From assembly GCA_965223505.1 (NCBI GenBank), contig CBDCWP010000013.1:64001-128000 (forward strand): 64,000 nt of DNA. The letters are read 5' to 3'. The DNA comes from Planctomycetota bacterium. GTDB lineage: Bacteria > Planctomycetota > PLA2 > JAEUHO01. A model generated the notes under the pieces. The model saw only the letters and a program-made list of their open reading frames with translations. It searched no databases and was not told the origin of the DNA. Position numbers and translations under genes: made by a program. Shown piece by piece: positions 42,147-43,071 of this stretch (the first letter of the stretch is position 1; each line of letters opens with the position of its first letter).

Positions 42147-43071
42147 ATGGAATTGGGACTTCGCGGCAAAACCGCCCTGGTCACGGGCGCCAGTAAAACA
42201 TCCCCGCCGCAAGCAGCGGGGCTTTCATAGGAATTGCTCTATTGAGTTGGGGGAGTCGTGTCCCCCAACACCCCCTAACAAGGATGCCATTCATCCCCAC
42301 CGCAAGCAGTGGGGCATCCTGTCATGCTTTCGTGAAGGCATCGGCATGGCCATCGCCCACAAACTCGCGGAAGAGGGCGTGCGCGCCGCCATCTGCGCCC
42401 GCACCGAATCGAAGCTCAAAGCGACGGCTGAAGACATCGCCCGCGCCACCGGCGTGGACATCGTGCCGATTGCCGCCGATCTGCGCAGCCTCGCCGGCTG
42501 CCAGGGCTTTGTCGAGCAGGCCGCGGCGCAACTCGGCGGCGTCGACATCCTGGTCAACAACGCCGGCGCCTCGGCTTTTGGCGCCTTTGTCGACCTGCCC
42601 GACGACGCCTTTGTCGACGCCATCAACGGCAAGCTCCTGGGCTATATCCGCTGCGCCAAGGCCGCCATCCCGCACATGCAGCGGCGCGGCGGCGGGGTGA
42701 TCATCAACATCACCGGAACCACGCAGCAGGCCGTGCCGCTGCACACGCCGGGCAGCGCCTGCAACGCCGCCATCCGCATGTTCAGCAAGGAATTATCGAT
42801 CGAGCTGGGACCGCTCAACATCCGCGTCAACAGCATCGCCCCTGGCCGCATTCAAACGACCCGCTCCGACCGCCTGCTGGAGGCGAACGCCGAGTCGCAG
42901 GGAACGACGCCGGAGGCCATCCTGAGCGATCTCGTCAAAACCATTCCGTCGGGCCGCGTCGGGTCAATTGACGACATCGCCGACGCTGTGCTGTTTCTGG
43001 CATCGGAGCGGGCGACGTACATCAATGGCTCAGCCCTAGTGGTGGATGGCAGCAAGTCGTTGGTGATTTAG
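42147..43071 (+). pseudogene. SDR family oxidoreductase interrupted by a 139-bp insertion
   Basis: ATG 42147 MELGLRGKTALVTGAS | insertion | EGIGMAIA...VDILVNNAG...VNSIAPG...VVDG; native frame stops at TAG inside the insert. Confidence 0.9.
42193..42331 (-). mobile_element. Non-autonomous IS200/IS605-type palindrome-associated element (PATE/MITE-like)
   Basis: Two 24-nt subterminal hairpins CATCCCC(G/A)CCGCAAGCAG(C/T)GGGGC, central 9-bp hairpin, no TSD; removal restores GCC AGT GAA GGC. Confidence 0.85.

Follow-up and report, generated by a model that had tools for sequence, protein, structure and literature searches.

A probable palindrome-associated transposable element of the IS200/IS605 family inside a short-chain dehydrogenase gene

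The interrupted dehydrogenase gene and its 139-bp insert

The window, which is the whole stretch of 64,000 nucleotides that was analysed, contains a short-chain dehydrogenase (SDR) gene that is interrupted between TGAS and EGIG by 139 bp (42193-42331), as can be read directly in the sequence (Table 1). The SDR frame starts at ATG 42147 and reaches GCC AGT (42189-42194), which gives MELGLRGKTALVTGAS; the insert follows, and the frame picks up at GAA GGC ATC GGC (42334 onward, EGIGMAIA...) and continues to a stop at 43071. The TGxxxGxG nucleotide-binding motif is thus broken up, and its contiguity with the Rossmann fold is lost. Deletion of the 139 bp in silico produces GCC AGT GAA GGC, although a 2-nt GT ambiguity at the boundaries allows three equivalent registers. 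TGASEGIG is intact in all 11 of the homologues fetched from outside the window, so the original prediction that the motif is split and that this deletion restores it exactly holds. One of these homologues is a 261-aa allele, P0002, to which the SDR 3' part is 100% identical by BLASTP rounding, with one residue different.

The insertion would shift the frame by +1 and so inactivate the SDR gene, and we infer that the enzyme function is lost. The open frame that reads through the element was considered as a selected feature and rejected as an annotation artefact, because its 46 open codons are unremarkable at the local GC content (our own estimate). Gene callers nevertheless make a plausible-looking protein of 309 amino acids from the interrupted SDR, and this protein is already present in protein collections.

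Table 1. Features of the interrupted SDR gene and of the inserted element (window coordinates)
Feature	Position	Strand	Evidence
Non-autonomous IS200/IS605-family element, very probably a PATE, 139 bp	42193..42331	- (element top strand = window minus)	Empty-site contig, sibling, shared end architecture
Target pentanucleotide TTCAC, directly 5' of the left end; host-gene DNA (codons AGT GAA)	42332..42336	-	Sequence and empty-site contig
Left-end (LE) subterminal hairpin, the cross-phylum 24-mer; hairpin foot ~17 nt from the cleavage site	42292..42315	-	Pattern search, repeat search
Outer stem around the LE hairpin, arms 42281-42288 / 42313-42320	42281..42320	-	Repeat search; equivalent stem covaries in relatives
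Central hairpin, 9 bp, 6-nt loop, arms 42246-42254 / 42261-42269	42246..42269	.	Repeat search
Right-end (RE) subterminal hairpin; terminator-like on the minus strand, stem then ATGTTTTACT	42199..42222	-	Repeat search; same position in relatives
Terminal TTTAC of the element itself, 9 nt 3' of the foot of the RE hairpin; presumed RE cleavage motif	42193..42197	-	Sequence; relatives end in TTTAC or TTCAC
SDR 5' fragment, 16 codons, MELGLRGKTALVTGAS	42147..42194	+	Sequence; matches N-termini of intact 261-aa homologues P0002-P0023
SDR 3' part, 245 codons, EGIG... to stop, otherwise without lesions	42334..43071	+	Pfam adh_short_C2 1.5e-49
Artefactual 309-aa ORF	42142..43071	+	Starts at an out-of-frame ATG, crosses the element and continues in the SDR frame; identical protein-collection entry P0001

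The insert has the anatomy of a small transposable element. Two 24-nt direct repeats (92% identical, spacing 93) each form a hairpin, and the copies differ solely at two positions that pair with each other in the stem, G-C in one and A-T in the other. The repeat search agrees with the original description of these two hairpins, of their compensatory difference and of the 9-bp hairpin between them. The near-terminal hairpins are in direct orientation, and there are no terminal inverted repeats. On the top strand the LE reads GAAAGCATGACAGGATG followed by the hairpin, and the 3' end of the minus strand reads ...GGGGATGTTTTAC. The only ORFs in the 139 bp are read-through or short chance frames, and folding of the whole element only modestly beats that of shuffled sequences (z -1.56 on the plus strand and -2.10 on the minus strand). 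A hairpin followed by GGGGATG resembles type I-E CRISPR repeats, and a CRISPR mini-array was therefore considered. It was rejected because the 24-nt repeat occurs only twice, the copies lie 69 nt apart, and the element family described below accounts for them.

Empty alleles and the origin of the contig

Occupied and empty alleles were assessed on assembled public contigs (Logan), not on reads. A 346-nt contig from run X2 joins 42192 to 42332 and skips exactly 139 nt. Therefore, an empty site exists, and there is no target duplication, as the original prediction had stated. In a more distant relative in runs X1-X3, 42193 is followed by a C and then by 42334, which gives an AGC codon. The pentamers at the two ends of the window element also differ, with TTCAC flanking the LE and TTTAC ending the RE, and Chloroflexia copies show the converse; these pentamers are therefore not a target duplication.

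The insertion is missing in near-identical and related strains, both among proteins and among contigs. The insertion is recent and polymorphic; the gene shows no other damage, and empty alleles are found alongside the occupied one in the environment. The empty alleles diverge from the window elsewhere, by ~3% in the X2 contig, by ~8% in the dominant relative and by one residue in P0002; they therefore resemble strains that never received the element and not revertants. Judged on these sequences, the empty alleles would be more simply explained as ancestral than as products of excision. In two samples, contigs identical to the element continue into dissimilar flanks (X1 record 2 and X4 record 25). 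Summed contig depth over the element is 2-4 times that of its flanks in X2 and X3; this is not a copy number and at most hints at further copies.

Within the window's own assembly, BLAST and a fuzzy hairpin search find one copy, the element itself, and no sequences of the Y1_Tnp, Cas12f1-like_TNB, tnpA-like or tnpB-like kinds were found there. Searches for the full-length element in 28 further genomes of the MAG's family, and for the hairpin at one mismatch or fewer in 39 further genomes of the MAG's order, found nothing. The window's contig is a compositional outlier; it is probably mis-binned, and its true host is probably Entotheonella-like. Therefore, the absences in the assembly and in the MAG's family and order carry little weight, and this contig cautions against inferring from a MAG that a genome lacks a sequence.

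Relatives that share the ends

A pattern search of genome contigs for the LE 24-mer yields 66 loci, spread over 28 assemblies of several phyla. By our own uniform-composition estimate fewer than one match is expected, so the matches are not due to chance. The locus counts overstate the number of independent events, since many of the 66 loci repeat the element within a single genome or represent one insertion shared by related MAGs (L053/L068 and L033/L082 are examples). In these relatives the 24-mer adjoins the left end of elements that carry an IS200-type tnpA (~592 bp), carry tnpB (~1209 bp) or are gene-less (~135-165 bp). In the window's plus orientation their layout is (A)GT(A/G)AA, 3 nt and a hairpin, then the interior, then a hairpin and 15-16 nt up to the boundary with GTAAA. 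Transposon genes lie between such ends at some of the 69 related loci, tnpA at 12 and tnpB at six; the TnpA of L041 has 144 aa. The TnpA of one relative matches Pfam Y1_Tnp (1.5e-42) and the NCBIfam IS200/IS605 transposase model (transpos_IS200, 154.7 bits, cut-off 55), and a relative's TnpB matches OrfB_IS605 and scores 261 bits on guided_TnpB. The identification of the insert as a non-autonomous element of the IS200/IS605 type, lying on the minus strand 3' of TCAC, stands.

Left-end targets could be scored at 61 of the 69 loci and are TTTAC at 55, ATTAC at four, CTTAC at one and TTCAC at one. Four loci are truncated at the left end and were left out of the motif scoring; among the 65 untruncated left ends the GT[AG]AN motif is absent at four (TTTGC at two, TCTAC and TTTAA at one each). 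Beyond the target motif the flanks vary among copies. The hairpin pair that differs between the two ends of the window element is G-C at 35 of the 69 loci, A-T at 33 and mismatched at one. In an alignment of 25 left ends, compensatory changes occur at five of 12 predicted pairs, and four outer pairs of the outer stem show 7-11 double changes each. Such covariation argues for a hairpin structure that is under selection.

A sibling of the window element lies in a metagenome (L081:100-238); it is 92.1% identical over 139 of 139 nt, has unrelated flanks and again lies at TTCAC. Its central hairpin is mostly kept; one change in the stem is uncompensated, and another lies in the loop. The original prediction had proposed to look for further copies in the source assembly, a conserved TCAC flank and a tnpA/tnpB parent with the same ends. 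The copies found, namely the sibling and the related loci, lie outside the assembly; the sibling shares TTCAC, but most related left ends have TTTAC; and transposase-bearing elements with the shared end architecture exist elsewhere, but none in the assembly, and none is a direct parent. A metagenome scan for a parent with the interior of the window subfamily, using an RE-specific 31-mer, gave no matches, and a second metagenome scan with the two-hairpin pattern gave three loci; one of them, L081, is a sibling, and none is a parent. Between the window element and its gene-bearing relatives, BLAST aligns only 32-48 nt in the region of the LE hairpin. A 46-aa frame derived from the hairpin, used as a peptide query aimed at finding siblings through spurious ORFs, had one uninformative match (P0121, 67% identity). 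The 24-mer had no matches in viral contigs, and these show no sign of a phage vector.

No tnpA or tnpB lies within 1.5 kb of the hairpin at L016, L044, L069, L035, L075 and L056; the ORFs beside it are ordinary host genes (SDRs, an integrase, ArsR and queuosine genes), and no cargo tied to the element was identified at these six loci. A tentative covariation between guide and target was also considered. In the window element and its sibling, GGATG precedes the LE hairpin on its 5' side and the target is TTCAC, and most others have GAATG with TTTAC, which would suggest a G/A to C/T correspondence. However, L050 pairs GGATG with ATTAC, and L034 and L058 have a common RE guide region yet end in TTTAC and TTCAC. 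These loci follow no consistent rule, and the guide-tetranucleotide pairing rule of IS608 is not confirmed by them.

Together these loci make up a clade of IS200/IS605 elements with a near-invariant 24-nt LE hairpin and a TTTAC-type target, and this pair can be used as a probe for such ends. The hosts of the clade are Acidobacteriota, Chloroflexota, Abditibacteriota, Proteobacteria, Firmicutes, Ignavibacteriota, Verrucomicrobiota and an Entotheonella-like host.

Mechanism, alternative explanations and known systems

We consider it very probable that the insert is one of the palindrome-associated transposable elements (PATEs), having arisen from an IS200/IS605-family insertion sequence by deletion of its genes, and that it was mobilised in trans and inserted 3' of TTCAC, inactivating the SDR. 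The anatomy, the family membership of the ends, the target motif, the lack of a duplication, the empty site and the sibling copy are seen directly; the transposition chemistry and the trans-acting TnpA are presumed by analogy. The established model for IS608 and ISDra2 is single-strand 'peel-and-paste' transposition, and in the IS200/IS605 family a strand (lagging-template) bias goes with it. By this model the element would retain just two cis-acting ends, a two-tier LE hairpin ~17 nt from the cleavage site and an RE with the same hairpin, followed 9 nt on by the end of the element's own TTTAC. A Y1 (HUH) TnpA supplied in trans would bind both hairpins on the single-stranded top strand (window minus) and cut on the 3' side of two motifs, the flanking TT(T/C)AC and the terminal TTTAC. 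A single-stranded circle would be released, the donor would be sealed exactly, and the circle would be inserted 3' of another TT(T/C)AC. Here it would have landed 3' of the TTCAC that is antisense to the Ser-Glu codons (AGT GAA) of the TGxxxGIG motif. With a single copy in an assembly in which neither tnpA nor tnpB was found, these sequences would not in themselves demonstrate mobility of the window copy.

Two alternatives deny that the insert is an IS200/IS605 derivative or a real allele. An assembly or binning artefact, in which the insert would be a chimeric join, has next to no chance of being correct. The probable mis-binning of the contig and the presence of several strains in the sample would speak for it, but the junctions recur in Logan contigs: X3 record 16 covers 41914-42227, of which 35 nt belong to the element, and X1 record 4 covers 42307-42713 with 0 differences, with only 25 nt inside the element. 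These contigs may share the window's sample of origin and are therefore not independent evidence; the sibling with the same 139-bp boundaries comes from a different metagenome and is independent. Extremely unlikely, too, is a REP/REPIN-type repeat mobilised by a RAYT (REP-associated tyrosine transposase). RAYTs are TnpA homologues, the element is short, hairpin-based and non-coding, and L016, one of the relatives, consists of a lone extended hairpin immediately upstream of a gene and looks REP-like. However, the hairpins are direct and not inverted, the ends are asymmetric and defined, and the copies are discrete insertions beside a TTTAC-type target. The relative's TnpA scores only 39.2 bits on the RAYT model REP_Tyr_transpos (cut-off 80), against its 154.7 on the IS200/IS605 model, and the assembly, with its single copy of the element, yielded no Y1 gene of any kind.

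The other alternatives give the element a function, and both go back to the original prediction. The host or population might toggle the SDR by precise TnpA-mediated excision and re-insertion. Precise excision is intrinsic to IS200/IS605 chemistry, occupied and empty alleles occur together in one sample, and the SDR downstream of the insert is otherwise intact. Even so, we regard such a reversible switch as very unlikely, with no tnpA found in the assembly, with empty alleles that look like never-occupied strains, and with one insertion among many SDR paralogues being what random transposition would produce. It is just as hard to credit that an RE transcript antisense to the SDR directs a trans-acting TnpB to cut the empty allele (TTCAC followed by TGGCGCC...), favouring retention of the element. 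Some family members do hold tnpB between the same kind of ends, the RE hairpin is followed by a terminator-like T-run on the minus strand, and PATEs often encode omega-RNAs used by TnpB in trans, according to the relevant passages of PMC10055086. Against this, no cognate TnpB or tnpB-like sequence was found in the assembly, and no scaffold derived from a tnpB 3' end was recognised as in a TnpB omega-RNA (reRNA) module. BLAST similarity to tnpB-type relatives is a 36-nt stretch at the LE hairpin only, the likeness of the RE to theirs (hairpin and terminal pentamer) is by eye only, and the RE-side sequence amounts to at most ~70-90 nt. In architecture the window element is matched most closely by elements that carry tnpA only or no gene. 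Rfam searches gave sub-threshold chance matches only for the element (rnk_pseudo, 21.8 bits against a gathering score of 55) and nothing relevant above the gathering score for four related loci. We also give little chance to a lone PATE that, in a host without a tnpA or tnpB of its own, is moved or kept by enzymes from outside the chromosome, such as a transient plasmid or community DNA, with an antisense RE guide and TnpB acting against the empty allele. If this were true, the element would act as a minimal unit with drive-like behaviour, or would switch the SDR on and off at the population level.

The PATE explanation accounts for what the original prediction observed, which is confirmed at its coordinates and with the element correctly identified in every testable detail; in substance, there was neither a lack of relatives with these ends, nor copies flanked by target duplications, nor orthologues without TGASEGIG. 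Its interpretation as a whole, which included the switch and the guide, is partly supported.

Among the closest systems are the elements of the Blastocatellia (L041 and others) and Chloroflexia (L015 and others) MAGs, which share the LE 24-mer, the RE hairpin type, the terminal pentamers and the target. They carry genes, being tnpA-only (~592 bp) or tnpB-only (~1209 bp), whereas the window element is gene-less; their interiors and the 15-16 nt from hairpin to end differ from those of the window subfamily, and none is a direct parent.

The window element also resembles IS608 (ISHp608) of Helicobacter pylori, the IS200/IS605 element studied structurally, in its position 3' of a TTAC-type motif, in its identical-type LE and RE hairpins and in the absence of a duplication. 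The distances from cleavage site to hairpin are asymmetric in both, 19 and 10 nt in IS608 and ~17 nt (LE) and 9 nt (RE) here. Unlike IS608, whose RE ends in TCAA, the window element has neither tnpA nor tnpB, has an unrelated hairpin sequence and ends its RE in TTTAC. The relevant passages on IS608 describe its LE and RE hairpins as identical (PMC7290912).

PATE-like minimal elements of the IS605 family are described from Geobacillus stearothermophilus (Meers et al. 2023, PMC10055086). As far as the relevant passages go, they are likewise gene-less, have an LE and RE common to tnpA- and tnpB-bearing relatives and are presumably mobilised in trans. Unlike the window element, which has no detected omega-RNA scaffold and no transposon gene found in its assembly, they often have omega-RNAs, with tnpA and tnpB in the same genome (PMC10055086).

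PATEs such as HqIRS46 are described from Haloquadratum walsbyi (Dyall-Smith et al. 2011, PMC3119063). Their definition there, in the passages concerned, is that they are too short to encode a transposase, have near-terminal palindromes, lack inverted terminal repeats (ITR) and make no target duplication (PMC3119063). All four properties are found in the 139 bp, as are the direct subterminal hairpins, insertion 3' of a motif and seamless empty site of IS200/IS605 ends, so the element matches both definitions as these sources word them (PMC3119063, PMC7290912, PMC10055086). The tie of such ends to a Y1 HUH TnpA or a TnpB is found in the relatives only and not in the window's assembly; mobilisation appears in the strain-specific insertion and in a full-length sibling elsewhere, with one copy in the assembly. 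Compared with the H. walsbyi PATEs as reported in those passages, the window element is in a bacterial, probably Entotheonella-like, and not a haloarchaeal host, is present as one copy in the DNA examined and not as tens per genome, differs in hairpin sequence and target (TTTAC/TTCAC), and lies inside a coding sequence.

In conclusion, this kind of element is already described, both trans-mobilised PATEs and PATEs with omega-RNAs having been published, as the relevant passages show (PMC3119063, PMC10055086), and knowledge of how these transposons work is unchanged. The window does offer a clean natural case of gene inactivation by a protein-less 139-bp IS200/IS605 derivative, and it comes with both the occupied and the empty allele, together with a sibling copy, as material for testing trans-mobilisation and precise excision.

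The interrupted SDR gene and its empty site

Window positions 41700-43300 were read, and the gene for a short-chain dehydrogenase (SDR) encodes MELGLRGKTALVTGAS as far as the AGT codon at 42192-42194, where foreign DNA begins; downstream, the SDR frame picks up again at EGIGMAIAHKL... (see the table). The C-terminal 245 residues match Pfam adh_short_C2 (1.5e-49) and adh_short (1.4e-41). Removal of the 139-bp insert restores GCC AGT GAA GGC, in agreement with the original prediction of an SDR motif (TGAS/EGIG) that is split by the insert and exactly repaired by its deletion; three junction registers are equivalent because GT is present at both junctions. 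Within the TGxxxGIG motif the insert shifts the frame by +1. A read-through ORF opens at an out-of-frame ATG five bases 5' of the true SDR start, crosses the element and enters the SDR frame; the protein collection already lists its product as a prediction (P0001). Missing from this product are the TGAS part of the nucleotide-binding motif and the first beta-strand, and we regard the chimera as an annotation artefact.

A homologue search with the C-terminal 245 residues scored 8000 candidates; 1504 of them passed E <= 1e-30, and 12 of the 120 listed were examined, one of them being P0001 itself. All 11 of those from outside the window read ...KTALVTGASEGIGMAIA..., as had been expected of orthologous SDRs at the insertion site (TGASEGIG); ten have 261 residues and one has 331. 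One of them, P0002 (261 residues, on a 14-kb contig), differs from the window SDR by one residue. In the region of 42784-42786 the window's gene reads RIQTTRSD, and P0002 and the other 10 homologues have Ala for the second Thr; the Thr could have arisen under constraint relaxed by the inactivation, or be ordinary variation between strains.

At the DNA level, Logan contigs of four sequencing runs were aligned to window positions 41700-42900; runs X1-X3 are from one sample, possibly the source of the window's own assembly, and X4 belongs to a different study. One contig of 346 nt in X2 (depth 5.2) aligns to 42076-42192 and 42332-42561, skipping exactly 139 nt, with 10 other letters different. 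It represents a strain of about 97% identity in which the site is empty, and it bears out the claim that no target duplication was made. X1-X3 also contain a remoter relative, about 92% identical, at depths of 8.6, 18.4 and 39.6. In it 42193 is followed by a C and then by 42334, so that the codons are AGC GAA and the TCAC motif is gone on the opposite strand. The AGC serine codon belongs to the dominant related strain of that sample, and an allele without TCAC may not be targetable at that position. The occupied allele is covered by one contig in X3 (record 16, 41914-42227, 35 nt into the element) and one in X1 (record 4, 42307-42713, 0 differences, 25 nt within the element). The empty-site contigs, the intact homologues and the junction-covering contigs therefore show that the insertion is real, strain-specific and without duplication.

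Structure and target site of the element

Coordinates of the interrupted gene, the element and related loci (LE and RE, left and right end on the element's top strand)
Feature	Position	Size or identity	Remark
SDR gene, start	ATG 42147
SDR gene, frame resumed to stop	GAA 42334 to 43071
Read-through ORF	42142-43071 (+)	309 aa	out-of-frame ATG 42142
Inserted element	42193-42331	139 bp
RE and LE hairpins	42199-42222 and 42292-42315	24 nt, 92% identical	direct repeat; repeat search
Central hairpin	42246-42254 / 42261-42269	9 bp	repeat search
Outer stem enclosing the second hairpin	42281-42288 / 42313-42320		repeat search; absent from the original prediction
Tartrate dehydrogenase gene	43186-44256		adjoins the SDR gene
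Sibling element	L081:100-238	92.1% identical	over all 139 nt
Solitary hairpin	L016:1479-1560		Betaproteobacteria MAG
tnpB-only element	L015:1526-2737 (+)		copies L023, L042, L049, L068
Left-end sub-family	L044:482-1456 (-)		Pyrinomonadaceae

The repeat search recovered both predicted direct-repeat hairpins with their compensatory pair, as well as the central hairpin. The two differences between the repeats are at stem-pairing positions, where one copy has G-C and the other A-T. In the 69 loci with a related hairpin, collected with a pattern that permitted all four combinations at the variable pair, it is G-C in 35, A-T in 33 and mismatched in 1. RNAalifold, run on 25 distinct left ends (those of the window and L081 included), predicted the inner hairpin and, around it, an outer stem of 4 bp. 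Of the 12 predicted pairs, five keep pairing via changes on both sides (7-11 sequences per outer-stem pair). Copies from one genome do not count as independent here, but the changes in the outer stem separate lineages, and the two-tier left-end hairpin is therefore conserved as a structure. The folding energy of the whole element only modestly beats that of shuffled sequences (z -1.56 and -2.10), and the case therefore stands on sequence comparison and not on thermodynamics.

On the window's minus strand the insert lies directly 3' of TTCAC and ends ...GGGGATGTTTTAC. In 61 of the 69 loci the pentamer that precedes the left end could be scored (four are truncated and four have no motif): TTTAC in 55, ATTAC in 4, CTTAC in 1 and TTCAC in 1. 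The motif-less loci have TTTGC (twice, the same insertion in two MAGs), TCTAC and TTTAA. DNA past this pentamer varies from copy to copy. The window has TTCAC flanking the left end and TTTAC ending the right, and the Chloroflexia copies have the converse, TTTAC and TTCAC. The terminal pentamer of the right end is element-owned and not necessarily the same as the target, and the pattern is the IS200/IS605 cleavage-site arrangement, not a target duplication. A T directly follows the right end in nearly all copies; since that of the window (complement of A 42192) is host DNA according to the empty-site contig, it represents target preference or chance.

Relatives and the host contig

The hairpin pattern CATCCCCRCCGCAAGCAGYGGGGC occurs at 66 loci in genome_contigs, from 28 assemblies that are all MAGs. 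The lineages are Pyrinomonadaceae, Blastocatellia and other Acidobacteriota; Abditibacteriaceae; Chloroflexia/Chloroflexota; Delta- and Betaproteobacteria; Clostridia and Heliobacteriaceae; Ignavibacteriales/Melioribacter; and Opitutaceae. For many of the hairpins a contig end is about 25-120 nt away, which is expected of multi-copy repeats. When loci are aligned, the copies cease to resemble each other at a constant position, 15-16 nt past the hairpin and right before GTAAA. Comparison of copies within a genome gives discrete elements of about 1209 bp (a Chloroflexia MAG), about 592 bp (a Blastocatellia MAG) and about 135-145 bp (Acidobacteria 13_1_20CM), each with a second hairpin of the same type at its far end, preceded by (A)GTAAA or (A)GTGAA.

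The 592-bp element encodes, on the strand opposite to the pattern, a 144-aa protein with a Pfam Y1_Tnp match (1.5e-42); the NCBIfam model for IS200/IS605 transposases scores it at 154.7 bits (cut-off 55), and the RAYT model at only 39.2 bits (cut-off 80). The 1209-bp element encodes a 403-aa TnpB (OrfB_IS605, Cas12f1-like_TNB and, at 261 bits, guided_TnpB). By tblastn, tnpA is present in 12 and tnpB in 6 of the 69 loci, about 30 of which have a contig end too near the hairpin to judge. At least four further lineages (MNJR/L033, L034/L058, L047 and L055) have gene-less two-hairpin elements of 135-165 bp. The gene content of the larger relatives and the shared ends imply that the family's top strand is the window's minus strand. 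On it the layout is TT(T/C)AC, then the left end and, closing the element, a right end that terminates in TTTAC; the window's 139 bp match this base for base.

Several members display patterns of their own. At L016 the hairpin is solitary and carries a long, extended outer stem (TTTACGAAAAAATGCCA ... TGGCATTTTTTCGTAAG); an unrelated SDR gene starts about 40 nt downstream, and within 1.5 kb there is no second end. This could be a remnant with one end only, or else a solo form of the family that resembles a REP. In the Pyrinomonadaceae sub-family (L044, L021, L026, L030, L040, L061, L064, L066, L069 and L071) the left end is abundant and often lies at the end of a contig, and neither tnpA nor tnpB was found within 1.5 kb of it. 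The left end of L044 is followed on the same strand by a gene for a tyrosine recombinase (Phage_integrase and SAM_4), which may be cargo or a neighbour. In L015-type elements, TnpB conservation ends at about residue 387-388, which is the transposon right end, and the ORF continues into each flank to a different stop per copy. This would fit a right end or guide-RNA region overlapping the tnpB 3' end.

A search of metagenome_contigs with the two-hairpin pattern gave three loci. Among them, L081 is similar to the window only within identical boundaries; its flanks are unrelated and TTCAC again adjoins. Run X1 has a 271-nt contig identical to 42192-42297 that continues into window-unlike sequence, X4 has a 96-nt contig identical to 42202-42297, and diverged copies are present in other contigs (e.g., positions 70-147 of an 8632-nt contig); these contigs suggest further copies of the element. 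The sibling at TTCAC and the tnpA- and tnpB-bearing relatives exist, but BLAST and a fuzzy hairpin search found the element in single copy in the window's assembly, and metagenome pattern searches and BLAST found no parent with the interior of its subfamily.

The host contig, CBDCWP010000013.1, has a GC content of 0.613 and a tetranucleotide r of 0.938 against the assembly, compared with 0.666-0.69 (about 0.67-0.69) and at least 0.998 for the other large contigs; contigs C32 (GC 0.645) and C29 (GC 0.635) are outliers too. The MAG's order (39 other genomes, E <= 1e-40) and its phylum (400 sampled genomes, E <= 1e-90) were searched for an SDR orthologue, and none was found. Elsewhere the SDR has more than 100 homologues at 80-96% identity, including P0004 (93%); the nearest named one among the matches listed is from Candidatus Entotheonella factor (87%). 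The tartrate dehydrogenase is 90% identical to that of Candidatus Entotheonella serta and 96% identical to another protein. The outlying composition, the missing SDR orthologues and the two neighbouring genes whose nearest named matches are in Candidatus Entotheonella make it probable that the contig is mis-binned. A single copy and no transposase in its own genome would, therefore, refer to about 267 kb of real host at most.

Proposed mobilization and comparison with known PATEs

We are highly confident that the insert is a gene-less, non-autonomous element of the IS200/IS605 family (a PATE). The mini-element originally predicted is borne out by its anatomy, an end layout common to tnpA- and tnpB-bearing relatives, the TT(T/C)AC target, the empty site without duplication and the second copy. 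For its mechanism we rely on the IS608/ISDra2 transposition model, which is established. TnpA supplied in trans would bind both hairpins on single-stranded top-strand DNA and cut on the 3' side of two motifs, the TT(T/C)AC that flanks the element and the TTTAC that ends it; the donor would be sealed and the circle inserted 3' of a new TT(T/C)AC. PMC7290912 and PMC10055086 summarize this model.

Two further proposals, a reversible switch and a guide RNA, found no support. Profile searches of the window's assembly found no Y1_Tnp or Cas12f1-like_TNB match, and tblastn with the relatives' TnpA and TnpB gave nothing better there than E = 1.3. That TnpA-driven excision and re-insertion toggles the SDR is very improbable: the empty alleles seen are those of other strains and are more simply ancestral. 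As to an omega-RNA guide from the right end, the hairpin there plus a T-run is terminator-like on the minus strand, a weak and non-specific feature. No tnpB was found in the assembly, BLAST similarity to tnpB-type elements is limited to the left-end hairpin region and there is no Rfam match, and so we give such a guide hardly any credence. Trans-mobilized and omega-RNA-carrying PATEs are both discussed in PMC10055086.

As defined in PMC3119063, PATEs have no ITRs, have near-terminal palindromes, make no target duplication, are too short for a transposase, share ends with IS605-type transposons and have a longer start-to-palindrome distance at the 5' end; the window element conforms to this published definition. 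PATEs are already known as a kind; what is new here is this member, together with the clade that it and its relatives form over several phyla, delineated here for the first time. The likeness to HqIRS46, a Haloquadratum PATE described in the same source, is that in both elements the two palindromes form a direct repeat, of 22 bp there and 24 nt here.
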